DNA from: Escherichia coli O157:H7
GTDB taxonomy: Bacteria; Pseudomonadota; Gammaproteobacteria; Enterobacterales; Enterobacteriaceae
Reading direction: 5' to 3' (one strand)
Length of the DNA stretch: 64,000 bases
Assembly (NCBI RefSeq): GCF_013167455.1
Contig: NZ_CP038328.1
The position numbers and the translations under genes were made by a program. The notes under the pieces are model-generated. The model saw nothing but the letters and a program-made list of their open reading frames with translations, did no database searches and had not been told where the DNA came from. Of this stretch, positions 28,480 through 45,883 are shown piece by piece. Numbering within the stretch: position 1 is the stretch's first letter; every line of letters starts with the position of its first letter.

Positions 28480-29778
<1,299 letters not shown>

Positions 29779-29853: not shown

Positions 29854-30249
29854 CTAAAAAATGCCAGTCTTCACGTTGCTTGTTCCAGCATTAAAGATGT
29901 ATGTGCTGACTTTTTCGCCTTTGAAAGAAACTGTCAGAGATTTAGTTTGTGAGTCTGCGCCACCTGCAAGCAGTCCCACAACGGGGATGAAAGAGGTTGC
30001 TTTGGACTGGCTGTTATACATAGTGTATGACCATTGTTCTTCACCATCGATCAAAGAACGGCTGTCAGGTTCACCGAACGATGCTAACACGTCCTGTTTT
30101 GTAGTTTTGCCTTTAACAATTTTGGTTTTCACACTTTCCTGCGTCTCATTTTTCAATGACTGGTTGCCTACTGAAGAACAACCTGCCAAGGTCAGAAAAA
30201 CGAATCTATATGAGAGTTTTTTGTACCTGAGACTAAATCGCCCTCCCAA
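29854..30249 (-). CDS. Putative lipoprotein; 5' end overlaps the IS30 remnant, native start possibly lost
   Basis: Lipobox LTLAGCSS after a hydrophobic stretch; ORF-track start is TTG; the first ~13 codons lie inside IS30-derived sequence. Confidence 0.45.
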   Translation of the reverse strand: MGGRFSLRYKKLSYRFVFLTLAGCSSVGNQSLKNETQESVKTKIVKGKTTKQDVLASFGEPDSRSLIDGEEQWSYTMYNSQSKATSFIPVVGLLAGGADSQTKSLTVSFKGEKVSTYIFNAGTSNVKTGIF

Positions 30250-31009: not shown

Positions 31010-31024
31010 GTGGTCTGTTTTAAT

Positions 31025-31094
31025 ATTTCTATTTCTATTTCTATTTCTATTTCTATTTCTATTTCTATTTCTATTTCTATTTCTATTTCTATTT
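31025..31094 (+). repeat. (ATTTCT)n hexanucleotide microsatellite, about 12 units
   Basis: Perfect tandem repeat beginning 16 nt outside the IS30 terminus. Confidence 0.95.
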
Positions 31095-32441: not shown

Positions 32442-33103
32442 ATATCTACGAAAGAATTGATGGCAGCAAATACCGAAATATTTGGGTAGTTGGCGATCTG
32501 CACGGATGCTACACGAACCTGATGAAAAAACTGGAGACGATAGGATTCGACACCAAAAAAGACCTGCTTATCTCGGTGGGCGATTTGGTTGATCGCGGTA
32601 CAGAGAACGTAGAATGCCTGGAATTAATCACATTCCCCTGGTTCAGAGCTGTACGTGGAAACCATGAGCAAATGATGATTGATGGCTTATCAGAGCGTGG
32701 AAACGTCAATCACTGGCTGCTTAATGGCGGTGGCTGGTTCTTTAATCTCGATTACGACAAAGAAATTCTGGCTAAAGCTCTTGCCCATAAAGCAGATGAA
32801 CTTCCGTTAATCATCGAACTGGTGAGTAAAGGAAAAAAATATGTCATCTGCCACGCCGATTATCCTTGTGATAAATACGAGTTTGGAAAGCCAGTTGATC
32901 ATCAGCAGGTAATCTGGAACCGCGAACGAATCAGCAACTCACAAGACGGGATCGTGAAAGAAATCAAAGGCGCGGACACGTTCATCTTTGGTCATACGCC
33001 AGCAGTGAAACCACTCAAATTTGCCAACCAGATGTATATCGATACTGGCGCAGTGTTCTGCGGAAACCTCACATTGATTCAGGTACAGGGAGAAGGCGCA
33101 TGA
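32438..33103 (+). CDS. Lambdoid Ser/Thr protein phosphatase (NinI / PP-lambda family)
   Basis: Metallophosphatase motifs GDLHG, GDLVDRG, GNHE; ATGA overlap with ninG. Confidence 0.8.
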
Positions 33104-33723
33104 GACTCGAAAGCGTAGCTAAATTTCATTCGCCAAAAAGCCCGATGATGAGCGACTCACCACGGGCCACGGCTTCTGACTCTCTTTCCGGTACTGATGT
33201 GATGGCTGCTATGGGGATGGCGCAATCACAAGCCGGATTCGGAATGGCTGTATTCTGTGGTAAGCACGAACTCAGCCAGAACGACAAACAAAAGGCTATC
33301 AACTATCTGATGCAATTTGCACACAAGGTATCGGGGAAATACCGTGGCGTGGCAAAGCTTGAAGGAAATACTAAGGCAAAGGTACTGCAAGTGCTCGCAA
33401 CATTCGCTTATGCGGATTATTGCCGTAGTGCCGCTACGCCGGGCGCAAGATGCAGAGATTGCCACGGTACAGGCCGTGCGGTTGATATAGCCAAAACAGA
33501 GCAGTGGGGGATAGTTGCTGAGAAAGAGTGCGGAAGATGTAAAGGCGTCGGTTATTCAAGAATGCCAGCAAGCGCCGCATATCGCGCTGTGACGATGCTA
33601 ATCCCAAACCTTACCCAACCCACCTGGTCACGCACTGTTAAGCCGCTGTATGACGCTCTGGTTGTGCAATGCCACAAGGAAGAGTCAATCGCAGACAACA
33701 TTTTGAATGCGATCACACGTTAG
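33100..33723 (+). CDS. Late-gene antitermination protein Q
   Basis: 207-aa ORF at the canonical position after the nin genes; Cys-rich motifs [10 protein letters not shown] and CGRCKGVGY. Confidence 0.7.
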
Positions 33724-33960
33724 CGCCATGATTGCCACGGATGGCAACATATTAACGGCATAATATTGACTTTTTGAATAACTTTGGGGAAACTTGACAC
33801 CAATAATGGGCGTTTTTTACATGTCATTGATGAGTCTCAATAACCTGCCGCCGAGTAGTTTTTATGCTCTGAATTGTATTTGTGTAGTAAACATGCTGAC
33901 TGCAATGTAATAGAGTTTTTTTAGCCTGTAACCTCTTGACGGCATTGAATTGCTTTTGTT

Positions 33961-34719
33961 ATGAGTTGTAAGCCAATGTTATCATCTTGTATTGGGGTGG
34001 TTATGAAGGATGGTGCGCTGCTCAGGAGTTCTTCACTTTTTATTGCCTACATGGGATGCCTTGGATGGGGGAGTGCTTATTTCTATGGATGGGGTACTTC
34101 TTTTTACTACGGCTTCCCATGGTGGATTGTAGGTGCAGGTGTTGATGATGTTGCCAGAAGTTTATTTTTTGCAGTTATCGTCATTGCTATATTTCTTATC
34201 GGTTGGGGTATTGGTGTTGTATTCTTTTTCGCAGTGAAAAGAAAACATTCTATGCAAGAGCTAAATGTATTTCGCCTTTATTTTGCTGTGGAATTATTGT
34301 TTGTGCCGGCAATTATTGAGTTTTCTATATTGAGACAGAAGATTCAGGTACCTCTTTTGCTACTGTCAGCAGCGATTGCGCTGGCGGTCACAATTTCGAT
34401 AAGATCTTATGGGCGATTTTTATCGGTATCATGCTTCTATGATAAGCCATTTATAAAAAAACATTTTTTTGAGATTGTGATGATTGCTTTTGTGGCATAT
34501 TTCTGGCTTTTTTCATTTCTGACAGGATATTACAAACCGCAGTTTAAGAAAGAATATGAAATGATTAATTATAATGATGGTTGGTATTATGTTCTTGCTC
34601 GTTATGATAATTGTCTGGTTTTGTCTACTTCTTTCAATGCAGGTAGTAAAAGGTTTGTGATTTATCAATCAGCACAAGATAAGAATCTTCAGGTTGATAT
34701 TGTAAGGACCAGAATTTAA
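33961..34719 (+). CDS. Polytopic membrane protein of unknown function at the Q-downstream cargo position
   Basis: 252-aa ORF with several hydrophobic helices rich in W/F/Y/G and a hydrophilic C-terminal tail; AT-rich; occupies the interval where stx lies in Stx phages. Confidence 0.5.
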   Translation: MSCKPMLSSCIGVVMKDGALLRSSSLFIAYMGCLGWGSAYFYGWGTSFYYGFPWWIVGAGVDDVARSLFFAVIVIAIFLIGWGIGVVFFFAVKRKHSMQELNVFRLYFAVELLFVPAIIEFSILRQKIQVPLLLLSAAIALAVTISIRSYGRFLSVSCFYDKPFIKKHFFEIVMIAFVAYFWLFSFLTGYYKPQFKKEYEMINYNDGWYYVLARYDNCLVLSTSFNAGSKRFVIYQSAQDKNLQVDIVRTRI

Positions 34720-35139
34720 TTGGCTGCATAAATAATATTTTAAGTTGCAAGTTGGCTATTCGTAGGAATAGAACCTTAGGCATGCTGAATGCGTTTTCTG
34801 AACATTGTTTTATAAACTGTGTCTGCTTGCTGTTGTGATCCTGCTTTTAGTGATGGTGATGATGGATTTCACCAGCAGGATAATGTTGGTACTGACTGAT
34901 GGCGCTCTGGTCTGCGGCATTGTGGTATTGCTGTGGCCGGTGATAAAAAGAAACAGCCTGCATAATGCTTGATTTTTTTGTTTACTGTTTATTAAAAATA
35001 CTACTGCATGGTGAATCCCCCTGTGCGGAGGGGCAATCAGCAACCAGGTATATGTGATAATCGCGGATTCAGGTGCTGATACTGAATTCACCGGGAGGCA
35101 CCCGGCACCATGCAAGAAAAAGAATGTGCATGCAAACAT

Positions 35140-35166
35140 GCCCCTCTCCGGAGGGGCATTTTTTAT
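35140..35166 (+). terminator. Rho-independent terminator in the Q-to-nanS-p intergenic region
   Basis: gcccctc-tccg-gaggggc hairpin followed by atttttta. Confidence 0.6.
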
Positions 35167-35379
35167 GGGTAAAAAATGCCCGAATGGGTTCGGGCAATAG
35201 CATGAGATACTGATATTGTTGTGTTGTTATCGTGTGGATTTTAACCAGGGTTTATCAGGCTGCGCAACTGCGTGGCCTTTTTTCATTTCTTGGGCTGTAG
35301 TCCCCGTGTGTCATTCAGGCTTCCGGACTACAGCCCACTCCATATCTGATTTAATACACTATCCCGGCCGGGAGGAATA

Positions 35380-45520: not shown

Positions 45521-45883
45521 TGGTGGAGCTGGCGGGAGTTGAACCCGCGTCCGAAATTCCTACGTCCTCGGTACTACATGCTTAGTCAGTCTTTACATTC
45601 GCTTGCCAGCTGCGGACGGACACGCCACTAACAAACTAGCCTGATTAAGTTTTAACGCTTCAACCCCAGGCAGGGCTTCCACGCGATCTCTTTTGGGTTT
45701 GACCTCTCTTGATCCCCGTCCTAAGAGCGGAGGCTAGGGAGAGAGGGCTCTAAGCAGGTTATTAAGCTGCTAAAGCGTAGTTTTCGTCGTTTGCGACTAT
45801 TTTTTGCGGCTTTTTACGAGGCCAACCGCCCCTCGGCATGCACCTTGGGTTTCGCAAATCCCGTCGAATCCAGAATCAGCCCC
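45521..45883 (-). ncRNA. ssrA: tmRNA (SsrA)
   Basis: Reverse complement reads GGGGCTGATTCTGGATTCGACGGGATTTGCG...tag-peptide region...GGAGCTCCACCA, matching remembered E. coli tmRNA over 363 nt. Confidence 0.95.

Follow-up and report, generated by a model that had tools for sequence, protein, structure and literature searches.

The interval between the late antiterminator gene Q and the adjoining esterase gene of a lambdoid prophage in Escherichia coli O157:H7 contains two genes for membrane proteins. The best explanation of them, a tentative one, is that they form a lysogenic-conversion (moron) cassette in the Q-to-lysis slot, which encodes a host-serving envelope protein and is expressed by the scheme proposed below. 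The first gene (34003–34719 of the 64,000-nucleotide stretch of DNA analyzed here, referred to as the window) would specify a stand-alone inner-membrane protein of the TfpB/STM1630 family and the second (34805–34972) a DUF3927/TciB-like protein with two predicted transmembrane helices, which travels with the first gene in prophages. The TfpB-like protein may serve the host bacterium in the envelope as an accessory to host adaptation or colonization; its probable mode of action is to bind or modulate an envelope component that is either anchored in the membrane or periplasmic, and it would have no part in lysis.

We take the prophage, which is defective and lies at ssrA, to be Sp17/CP-933Y, and the region 33724–35379 is 100% identical to that in O157:H7 genomes. 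The limits of the interval are exactly those given in the first-pass annotation, since Q (33100–33723, + strand; phrog_127; RefSeq “antitermination protein”), which is of the lambda type with 202 of 207 residues identical to lambda Q (98%), ends at 33723 and a gene for a 617-residue sialate O-acetylesterase (35380–37233, + strand; DUF1737, SASA, and DUF6645; phrog_143), of the type named NanS-p, starts at 35380. The order of genes is also as described there, namely HNH, NinG, NinI phosphatase, Q, cargo, esterase, holin, a YdfR-like gene, and a truncated endolysin gene. The cargo had been placed in the position of stx in Stx-converting phages, and this is borne out by phage BP-4795 (Stx1), in which stx1AB occupies the slot and is followed by an sRNA block, with 85.8% identity to positions ∼35004–35379 of the window, and then by yjhS (nanS-p). 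Both flanks of the slot correspond to those of BP-4795, with PR'/qut and Q on one side and the sRNA/terminator block and nanS-p on the other. The esterase gene at 35380 forms the downstream boundary of the slot, and in phage 434 an SASA esterase gene stands in the same place as yjhS of BP-4795.

The stx slots of BP-4795 and 933W/Sp5 resemble the window in having NinG through Q upstream, and convergent sRNAs of the STnc100/AgvB-AsxR type, nanS-p (yjhS), S, and R downstream, but their cargo is an AB5 toxin whereas that of the window is two membrane proteins, and no tRNA genes, which are common in the slots of Stx phages, were found in the cargo slot here. The position has been described as one where morons insert and where convergent sRNAs are encoded, Sp17 being among the prophages listed (Tree et al. 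2014, PMC4104026). The cargo gene was noted as AT-rich in the first-pass annotation, and its GC content is 36.5%, as compared with 50.8% for Q, 55.3% for nanS-p, and 46.1% for the whole window. The cargo shows the attributes of a Stx-slot moron: location between Q/PR'-qut and nanS-p/S/R, distinct composition, and exchange between phages. No second copy of the TfpB-like gene was found in the 64-kb window.

The maximal open reading frame of the first gene, on the + strand, extends from 33961 to 34719 and corresponds to the 252 residues originally reported, and RefSeq places the start at 33976 (247 residues). From sequence comparisons, however, the true start is most likely the ATG at 34003, which would give a protein of 238 residues, because full-length homologues of 236–238 residues align from this Met (MKDG...), the gene of phage 2B8 is annotated in this way, and the two ATGs upstream of it overlap with a conserved promoter-like element; the starts at 33961 and 33976 were rejected on these grounds. 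The earlier description of the product as a protein of unknown function holds for its function but not for its family, which is PF27470 (TfpB), together with Salmonella STM1630. The PF27470 assignment is precomputed for the exact protein cluster and for all 104 homologues, and the protein matches phrog_1521 with an E value of 1.9e-154. Full-length relatives with 28–32% identity were found with phmmer (E 1e-21 to 1e-26), and PGAP labels some E. coli copies “STM1630 family protein.” The protein has the family architecture of ∼235–260 residues with an N-terminal helix rich in aromatic residues and Gly, a bundle of membrane helices, and a small β domain at the C terminus, and Foldseek gives TM values of 0.77–0.92 with family members from Escherichia, Salmonella, Neisseria, Moraxella, and Mannheimia. 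An Acinetobacter ATPase that is also named TfpB is unrelated.

The protein had been described as polytopic, in agreement with the four strong segments in its hydropathy profile and with the AlphaFold2 model (mean pLDDT 80), which has five long helices and a C-terminal five-stranded β domain. The loops at residues 80–87 and 138–154 are rich in Lys and Arg, the loop at 37–46 is without charge, and in distant homologues the C-terminal domain has two conserved Cys residues, which would fit a disulfide in the periplasm. We infer a topology with five transmembrane helices, a cytoplasmic N terminus, and a periplasmic C-terminal β domain of ∼55 residues. Alignments show strong conservation of the N-terminal half between bacterial orders, and we place the most conserved surface, an aromatic/Gly-rich hairpin (GWGSAYFYGWGxSFYYGFPWW...D(D/N)xARSL), at the periplasmic face of the membrane. 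Searches of Pfam-A, in a release without PF27470, with the protein and all 24 alignment members gave no significant match, NCBIfam gave none, and a sequence-profile search of the PDB gave none at E values up to 10. Among the 50 Foldseek matches listed from AFDB50 there were only uncharacterized proteins, chiefly from Enterobacteriaceae, Pasteurellaceae, Neisseria, and Moraxella, and no similarity to a characterized protein in these searches pointed to a specific biochemical activity. The protein may resemble the pilin accessory proteins TfpX/Y/Z of Pseudomonas and FimB of Dichelobacter; these names do not occur among the family-profile and Foldseek matches listed.

The relatives of the TfpB-like gene are found in a variety of settings. 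In ETEC plasmids, the family gene is divergent from eltAB, which encodes LT toxin; in Salmonella it lies between the SPI-2 effector genes sseJ and steB, in Citrobacter rodentium it adjoins lpxR, and in the Shigella plasmid pINV it is ∼5.5 kb from spa40. An ExPEC island has a copy beside genes for an ABC exporter and a glycosyltransferase and bor, tfpB of Moraxella is flanked on both sides by pilin genes, and Neisseria and Mannheimia have lone family genes amid housekeeping genes.

The Salmonella protein is STM1630, as indicated by its 717-bp gene, the neighboring sseJ and steB, and a published deletion primer that encodes NSSMLLAYLGGLGWG. STM1630 belongs to the same family as the window protein, with which it shares 46% identity and a length of 238 residues, and its gene is likewise AT-rich and stands alone beside virulence genes with a promoter of its own; unlike the window gene, it is in a chromosomal islet rather than a prophage, without a DUF3927 partner or an upstream Q/PR', and its 5'-untranslated region (∼210 nt) and promoter are unrelated in sequence to those of the window. 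The supplement of PMC6785131 reports that the STM1630 promoter has been mapped experimentally, that H-NS binds the gene, that it is expressed within macrophages as well as in SPI-2-inducing medium, and that transposon mutants are attenuated in calves and chickens, but that deletion in strain 4/74 raised, rather than lowered, intramacrophage replication. The deletion mutant was hypermotile in one screen (PMC4219756), but the follow-up (PMC4534456) does not have hypermotility among its confirmed phenotypes. The STM1630 phenotypes are modest and partly inconsistent.

TfpB of Moraxella bovis/lacunata (JGI “protein tfpB”) matches the family profile with an E value of 1.5e-63, and a 261-residue family representative matches the window protein alone with an E value of 5.6e-22. 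The Moraxella protein is similar in length to the window protein (261 versus 238 residues) and has the same combination of helix bundle and C-terminal β domain (Foldseek TM 0.82 with the Moraxella caprae model), but identity is ∼22–29%, the Moraxella C-terminal domain has a Cys pair that is absent from that of E. coli, and the gene lies amid type IV pilin genes whereas that of E. coli is in a prophage late region.

The DNA downstream of the TfpB-like gene, previously described as 660 nt of structured noncoding DNA, instead contains a gene for a 55-residue DUF3927 protein, the sRNAs STnc100 (+ strand) and AgvB (− strand), and three predicted intrinsic terminators. The DUF3927 gene (34805–34972, + strand; WP_000499458.1) has a TTG start and encodes a TciB-like small membrane protein with two hydrophobic segments by hydropathy; it matches PF13064 (DUF3927, E 1.6e-13) and phrog_1470 (“TciB-like,” E 2.7e-19), which is filed under [quoted passage not shown] A scan of IMG/VR left 80 prophage loci, and in 79 of these the DUF3927 gene comes after the TfpB-like gene; all 80 encode the 100%-identical E. 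coli protein and thus provide statistics of context, not of diversity; the partner is missing beside the plasmid and chromosomal copies of the family. A literature search on tciA, tciB, and DUF3927 found no relevant paper among those listed.

STnc100 (34980–35170, + strand) matches Rfam RF02076 over its full length (model positions 1–206) with 144.7 bits against a gathering threshold of 47, and includes its terminator at 35138–35159 (−21.4 kcal/mol, z −2.9). On position and strand only, we map to it STnc100_11 of strain EDL933, for which 387 RNA-seq reads and 0 ribosome footprints have been reported (PMC5331693). AgvB, an anti-GcvB sRNA, is encoded convergently at 35171–35232 (− strand; RF02702, 96.5 bits against a gathering threshold of 56); it is identical to the consensus and carries the GcvB-R1 target motif CACAACA and a terminator at 35196–35177 on the same strand. 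The function of AgvB was shown by experiment in work that places EcOnc01b in Sp17 (Tree et al. 2014, PMC4104026), and we take the present copy to be EcOnc01b, the Sp17 copy that has been deleted in published work. Just before nanS-p there is a second strong intrinsic terminator (35257–35278, + strand), which has a nine-pair stem and a T-run (−15.9 kcal/mol, z −2.9) and whose homologue in phage 434 is annotated as a terminator. In the classical sense a moron brings both a promoter and a terminator of its own; a conserved promoter-like element lies ahead of the cassette (see below), and no terminator was found directly after the TfpB-like or the DUF3927 gene, the first being that of STnc100.

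The proposal in the first-pass annotation that a Q-dependent late promoter drives the cargo is upheld in that a promoter and antitermination signal of the lambda type, whose absence would have contradicted that annotation, is predicted upstream, but dependence on Q is doubtful because no terminator was found between PR' and the cargo and the cassette has a promoter-like element of its own. The element at 33766–33812 (+ strand), which we take to be PR'/qut, has TTGACT as its −35 hexamer (33766–33771), GAAACT as its −10 hexamer (33789–33794), and, a little further on, an AATAAT that resembles a pause-type −10; its alignment with lambda PR'/qut is base for base as far as ∼33812, beyond which there is complete divergence from the 6S/tR' of lambda, and the element is identical in the phage 2B8 record. 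A terminator scan found no lambda-like tR' between PR' and the cargo, and the 214-nt leader folds no better than shuffled sequences (z +0.25). The segment homologous to the terminator of phage 434 is degenerate here (−6.2 kcal/mol, z −0.3 versus −13.7 kcal/mol, z −3.2 in 434). In Stx2 phages tR' precedes stx, a layout from which the lambda-Q variant in the window differs.

The candidate promoter of the cassette (33936–33965, + strand) is σ70-like, with a −35 of TTGACG, an 18-nt spacer, an extended −10 of TGtTATGAG, and a predicted start near 33972. It appears to be conserved: the ETEC-plasmid and ExPEC-island copies become similar to the window in nucleotide sequence only from 33924–33932 onward, a stretch that includes this element, and both TTGAC and TTATG are kept in Sp17, phage 434, and the ETEC copy, whereas the ExPEC copy has TTGAC but TAATG. 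A second candidate from the scan (33956–33985, TTGTTA-18-TATCAT) is not conserved. In the lysogen, transcription would start at the cassette's own σ70-like promoter, which by analogy with the reports on Salmonella STM1630 is probably silenced by H-NS and induced under particular conditions. Transcription from PR', ∼200 nt upstream, may also read through into the cargo, no terminator having been found between them, and the TfpB-like gene would be strongly expressed on induction as well, since it is inside the late operon. The terminators that Q would have to override to reach nanS-p and the lysis genes are that of STnc100 and the hairpin at 35257, in place of a lambda-like tR'. Reading of the cargo from PR' without Q as far as the STnc100 terminator, if it occurs, would have implications for the expression of morons and sRNAs of prophages in the lysogenic state.

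The same cassette is present in phage 434 (CPT_434_68/69) and phage 2B8 (gp58/gp59), with nucleotide identities to the window of 97–98% over ∼33842–35034 and 33600–35034, respectively. The TfpB-like protein is 100% identical in phage 434, the coding sequence differing by 4 synonymous and 0 nonsynonymous substitutions, and 97.9% identical in 2B8. In phage 434, unlike the window, Q is of the Q82 type, lpxR lies upstream, and the cassette is separated from PR' by a real hairpin terminator; the downstream sRNA region also differs from that of the window. Across the 80 prophage loci, the identical protein is found behind two types of Q, lambda-like and Q82-like.

Toxin, exclusion, or defense functions were suggested for the cargo in the first-pass annotation, but no match supports this, and the neighborhoods of the homologues point to host-interaction loci, not to defense islands. 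It is nevertheless possible, although unlikely, that the prophage-encoded inner-membrane protein, with or without the DUF3927 protein, blocks the entry of phage DNA or the insertion of membrane-targeting bacteriocins at the periplasmic face of the inner membrane, which is how HK97 gp15, P22 SieA, T4 Imm, and the immunity proteins of pore-forming colicins work. Known exclusion proteins are small inner-membrane products of morons; the window protein is likewise the product of a prophage moron with its own candidate promoter, and has a polytopic inner-membrane architecture with a conserved face placed on the periplasmic side, but no similarity in sequence or fold to HK97 gp15, P22 SieA, or T4 Imm was detected, and these are phage morons, whereas most members of the TfpB family are not in phages. 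The exchange of a single-gene cassette between phages with different Q modules, the adjacent ABC exporter and glycosyltransferase island of the ExPEC homologue, and the PHROG category of the neighboring gene, with its reference to colicin resistance, are consistent with exclusion; the “TciB” label, however, was transferred by homology, and no functional test was found in the literature. PADLOC-DB 2.0, which covers catalogued defense systems, has no family that matches either cassette protein at E values up to 1. The lone chromosomal genes amid housekeeping genes in Mannheimia and Neisseria, the expression of the Salmonella member in SPI-2-inducing medium and macrophages with its animal-colonization phenotypes, and the conservation of the N-terminal half across orders, which contrasts with the fast evolution typical of immunity and exclusion proteins, also argue against such a role.

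A function as an accessory of type IV pili or other surface appendages, in which the protein meets pilin-like proteins in the inner membrane and tunes fiber assembly (PpdD/HCP being the candidate in EHEC), appears improbable. The Moraxella member that gives the family its name is flanked by pilin genes on both sides, and genes for type IVa pili are present in the lineages that harbor the family, namely Moraxella, Neisseria, Pasteurellaceae, and Enterobacteriaceae; also, the conserved surface, as placed at the periplasmic face, would be where membrane-embedded prepilins sit. However, only the Moraxella copy adjoins pilin genes, and those of Neisseria, Mannheimia, Salmonella, Citrobacter, ETEC, Shigella, and EHEC do not, while the hypermotility of the STM1630 deletion in one screen, which could be viewed as favorable, is not among the phenotypes confirmed on retest. 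A late function that serves the phage, in which membrane proteins made under Q antitermination tune the timing of lysis, condition the envelope for release, or stop progeny from adsorbing to lysed cells, is very improbable, in spite of the position of the cassette directly downstream of PR'/qut and upstream of the lysis genes, its retention in phages 434 and 2B8, and the similarity of the DUF3927 protein in size and two-helix layout to small holin-like proteins. Lambda itself lacks the cassette, which is therefore dispensable for the lambdoid lytic cycle, and most of the family lies outside phages, on plasmids and in islets of the Salmonella, Citrobacter, Neisseria, and Mannheimia chromosomes. 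The TfpB-like gene remains intact in a prophage whose endolysin gene has been wrecked by IS elements. Homology to a holin or lysis component was looked for specifically, since it would have contradicted the first-pass annotation, and this identity was rejected: the PHROG matches are only to families of unknown function, and a complete class II holin gene (phrog_9876/20) and the endolysin fragment are separate and downstream.

Under the interpretation of the cassette as a moron that serves the host in the envelope, the association of the family with virulence loci is relevant, but it could merely reflect hitch-hiking of AT-rich mobile DNA. The finding as it stands is mostly rediscovery, because the gene layout, both sRNAs, and the family had been recorded before in public databases or papers. 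What is worth keeping is that one uncharacterized inner-membrane family of narrow taxonomic range recurs near virulence loci, these being LT genes, SPI-2 effector genes, the type III secretion region of the Shigella virulence plasmid, lpxR, Moraxella pilin genes, and the Stx slot of an O157 prophage, and that its only published phenotypes are the animal-colonization and macrophage phenotypes of Salmonella STM1630. A broader proposal, which is distinctly doubtful, is that the TfpB/STM1630 family represents a single unrecognized class of envelope accessory that pathogens have repeatedly co-inherited with secreted toxins, effectors, or surface fibers, and that works on the periplasmic side of the inner membrane, where it would help such cargo to be exported, released, or tolerated by the envelope while the pathogen is in the animal host. 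In the lambda-Q variant, this proposal has the cargo and STnc100 form one Q-independent PR' transcript, and the sRNA terminator would therefore act as the functional tR'. If the family does share one envelope function, it would constitute a new host-adaptation factor common to several major enteric pathogens, and phages 434 and 2B8 would be tractable systems in which to study the cassette.

The interval between Q and the esterase gene (33724-35379) is bounded exactly by the Q stop codon at 33723 and the esterase gene start at 35380, and the proposal of the first-pass annotation that it corresponds to the cargo slot of Stx phages is borne out: the feature is real and correctly positioned. The same landmarks flank stx1AB in the Stx1 phage BP-4795, whose order is NinG, NinH, Q, stxA1, stxB1, an sRNA-type block, yjhS (nanS-p), S, ORF47, R; the block between stxB1 and yjhS is 85.8% identical to window positions ~35004-35379, but BP-4795 has stx1AB where the window has a membrane-protein cargo. 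Three sources (RefSeq annotation of the EDL933 copy, PHROG scans, and Pfam) agree on the gene order in the window, with HNH endonuclease, NinG, NinI phosphatase, and Q (202 of 207 residues those of lambda Q) upstream, two small cargo genes after Q, an esterase of NanS-p type (DUF1737, SASA, and DUF6645), and then a class II holin, a YdfR-like gene, and a truncated endolysin gene. No tRNA genes were found in the slot. Many complete E. coli O157:H7 genomes, EDL933 among them, contain the 1656-nt interval at 100% identity, and the tmRNA gene ssrA lies 10 kb downstream (45521-45883). The presence of an AgvB copy, together with the location of EcOnc01b/AgvB in prophage Sp17 by Tree et al. (2014, PMC4104026), identifies the prophage as the defective element named Sp17 in Sakai. 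Its endolysin gene is cut after ~73 codons by IS66-family (tnpA/tnpB) and IS1203 elements (37998-40742), the latter an IS3-family element with an ALIL pseudoknot at 40345-40461, so that the prophage can no longer lyse its host; the cargo genes are still intact. Sp17 is presumably the CP-933Y of EDL933.

The membrane-protein gene had been read as a 252-aa ORF at 33961-34719. The ORF is real, is AT-rich as described (GC 36.5% versus 50.8% for Q and 55.3% for the esterase gene), and by hydropathy encodes a strongly hydrophobic product, but its start and length need correction. In Escherichia, Citrobacter, Cronobacter, Klebsiella, Enterobacter, Salmonella, and Yersinia, full-length homologues have 236-238 residues and their alignments begin at an internal Met at 34003 (MKDGALL...), the start equivalent to that used in the phage 2B8 annotation, and a Shine-Dalgarno-like GGGG run lies 6-9 nt upstream of this ATG. 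The upstream ATGs at 33961 and 33976, the latter being the RefSeq start, fall within a conserved promoter-like element and are rejected in view of this overlap, the homologue alignment, and the 2B8 annotation. The predicted gene is therefore taken as 34003-34719, encoding 238 residues. It contains an internal 24-nt tandem duplication (34062-34109) encoding GWGSAYFY/GWGTSFYY.

On the 3′ side of Q, a base-for-base alignment with lambda PR′/qut extends to ~33812, beyond which the window is wholly unlike the lambda 6S RNA/tR′ region. The PR′-like site has a −35 sequence of TTGACT, with GAAACT in place of the lambda −10 TAAATT and AATAAT at the position of the lambda pause-inducing AACGAT, and the PR′/qut-like sequence is identical in the phage 2B8 record. 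A terminator scan found no terminator between PR′ and the cargo, and the 214-nt leader that separates them is no more structured than its shuffles. The terminator annotated after PR′ in phage 434 (2962-3010 of its locus, L001) has a folding energy of −13.7 kcal/mol (z −3.2), whereas its counterpart in the window (33826-33872) is degenerate (−6.2 kcal/mol, z −0.3); the lambda-Q version is non-folding in both the window and phage 2B8. Because the 434 hairpin folds and the lambda-Q counterpart does not, lambda-type and Q82-type Q modules may differ in the need of the cargo for antitermination. The first strong plus-strand terminators after PR′ are that of the sRNA STnc100 and a hairpin at 35257, which would take the tR′ role in the lambda-Q variant, and PR′ transcripts would be able to span the cargo without Q. 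Nucleotide similarity to the copies on ETEC plasmids and an ExPEC island starts only ~75 nt 5′ of the ATG at 34003, and the shared stretch holds a conserved TTGACG, an 18-nt spacer, and TGtTATGAG (33936-33965), plausibly the candidate promoter of the cassette itself. A promoter of its own is the expectation for a moron.

The 660 nt downstream, previously described as structured noncoding DNA, are indeed structured, by virtue of three strong intrinsic terminators at 35138-35159 (+), 35196-35177 (−), and 35257-35278 (+), but they are not anonymous noncoding sequence, half of the stretch being a gene and published sRNAs. The gene (34805-34972), annotated in RefSeq, encodes a 55-aa DUF3927 protein (Pfam E 1.6e-13; phrog_1470, “TciB-like”) with two hydrophobic helices by hydropathy. 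STnc100 (34980-35170, plus strand; RF02076, 144.7 bits versus a gathering score of 47) is convergent with AgvB (35171-35232, minus strand; RF02702, 96.5 bits versus 56), whose copy here equals the family consensus exactly and contains the GcvB-mimic motif CACAACA. Experimental work has shown that AgvB antagonises GcvB and helps growth in bovine rectal mucus, and the site 3′ of stx2B in Sp5, like its equivalent in Sp17, was described as a site of moron insertion that carries convergent sRNAs (PMC4104026). In EDL933, the copy STnc100_11, which maps by position and strand only to that in the window, is transcribed and untranslated (387 reads, 0 footprints; PMC5331693).

No matches to the window protein were found in Pfam-A, NCBIfam, PADLOC, or PDB sequences; its PHROGs entry, phrog_1521, is of unknown function, and all of its homologues carry a precomputed PF27470 (TfpB) assignment. 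The family is small, only 55 sequences being recovered when 1.84 billion representatives were searched exhaustively with phmmer. It includes a Moraxella protein that JGI calls “protein tfpB” and that matches the family profile at E 1.5e-63, encoded among type IV pilin genes, and Salmonella STM1630, the identity of which is given by three checks: gene length (717 bp), flanking genes (sseJ and steB), and the deletion primer in the literature, which encodes NSSMLLAYLGGLGWG. PGAP now gives the name “STM1630 family protein” to some E. coli copies.

An identical protein is encoded by phage 434, downstream of a Q82-type Q, and in 80 IMG/VR prophage loci (Q lambda-type in ~46, Q82-type in ~32), with the DUF3927 gene directly after it in 79 of the 80; phage 2B8 encodes a 97.9% identical protein behind a lambda-type Q. 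Matches are present in 1196 of 5426 complete E. coli genomes, 678 records matching at 99% identity or above. More distant copies lie outside phages: on ETEC plasmids (L013-L017), divergent from eltAB and near estB (59% identity to the window protein); on Shigella flexneri pINV (L023, 6001-6717), where the T3SS region ends, ~5.5 kb from spa40 (57%); in C. rodentium, beside a split lpxR (66%); on an ExPEC island, adjoining an ABC-exporter gene, a glycosyltransferase gene, and bor, with STnc100-like sequence downstream (57%); in Salmonella (46%); and in Neisseria and Mannheimia, as lone genes among housekeeping genes (21-28%). Given these varied contexts, the gene behaves like a mobile unit of one gene, which has come to lie next to host-interaction loci again and again; only the prophage version has the DUF3927 partner. 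The ETEC family gene, on many plasmids, is ~870 bp from eltA of the heat-labile enterotoxin operon, with the gene for the heat-stable toxin STb within a few kb (its protein is indexed in 1285 blocks of the contig collection), and the pINV member is carried by 106 Shigella plasmids. A gene found repeatedly in the vicinity of the TfpB-like gene is lpxR, encoding a lipid A deacylase: in phage 434 (L001, 810-1769) and ~32 of the 80 prophage loci it precedes the Q82-type Q, and in C. rodentium (L022, 3863-4823) a split copy directly adjoins the TfpB-like gene.

In an AlphaFold2 model (mean pLDDT 80, pTM 0.73; 24-sequence alignment), helices span residues 5-36, 47-79, 88-111, 116-137, and 155-181, and residues 187-232 form a five-strand β domain. 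Among the 50 Foldseek matches listed, none was a characterised protein; most were members of the family in Enterobacteriaceae, Pasteurellaceae, Neisseria, and Moraxella. Loops 80-87 and 138-154 are K/R-rich and loop 37-46 is uncharged, and a Cys pair in the C-terminal domain is conserved in distant homologues; we infer an N-in, five-TM, C-out topology with a periplasmic β domain. The N-terminal tandem motif is the best-conserved part and is followed by YGFPWW and then D(D/N)xARSL; this conserved stretch is placed at the periplasmic membrane face.

Literature searches turned up no experiments on the gene of E. coli or of phage 434. For STM1630, entries in the supplement of PMC6785131 record binding by H-NS, expression from its own promoter in SPI-2-inducing medium and inside macrophages, inactivation of that promoter in ST313, attenuation of transposon mutants in calves and chickens, increased intramacrophage replication of a deletion in strain 4/74, and growth in LB without defect. 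The deletion was scored hypermotile in a motility screen (PMC4219756), but this is absent from the confirmed phenotypes of the follow-up study (PMC4534456).

Layout, protein family, and both sRNAs had all been recorded before; what remains of interest is the function of a membrane-protein family associated with virulence loci and the possibility that the cargo is transcribed from PR′ without Q. Our tentative reading, held at somewhat under even odds, is that the window protein is an envelope protein of lysogenic conversion that acts for the bacterium and can be expressed in the lysogen. It would bind or modulate a membrane-anchored or periplasmic envelope component, with contact made via the conserved surface placed at the periplasmic face and the β domain. 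A role in superinfection exclusion or bacteriocin immunity is rather unlikely, and an accessory of type IV pili or surface fibres, as suggested by the Moraxella context, is a good deal less probable than that. A late function serving the phage is the most doubtful of these; a holin or lysis role is rejected, a class II holin (PHROG) being separately encoded downstream. The little probability that is left belongs to a decaying or neutral passenger, against which the four synonymous and zero nonsynonymous differences from the phage 434 copy, and conservation across the whole family, indicate purifying selection.

Two perfect hexanucleotide arrays were also observed in the window. One, (GCCAGA) x 30.7 at 29499-29682, lies in a 432-aa ORF (28480-29778, plus strand), where RefSeq has a shorter “hypothetical protein” (~406 aa), and encodes a long Pro-Glu dipeptide run near the C terminus; the other, (TATTTC) x 11.8 at 31024-31094, lies between the HNH endonuclease gene and a truncated IS30 transposase gene. 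A gene for a BamE-domain lipoprotein (29854-30249, minus strand; 131 residues by ORF call, shorter in RefSeq) is located to the left of the prophage late genes, where the DNA is AT-rich, and adjoins the IS30 remnant.
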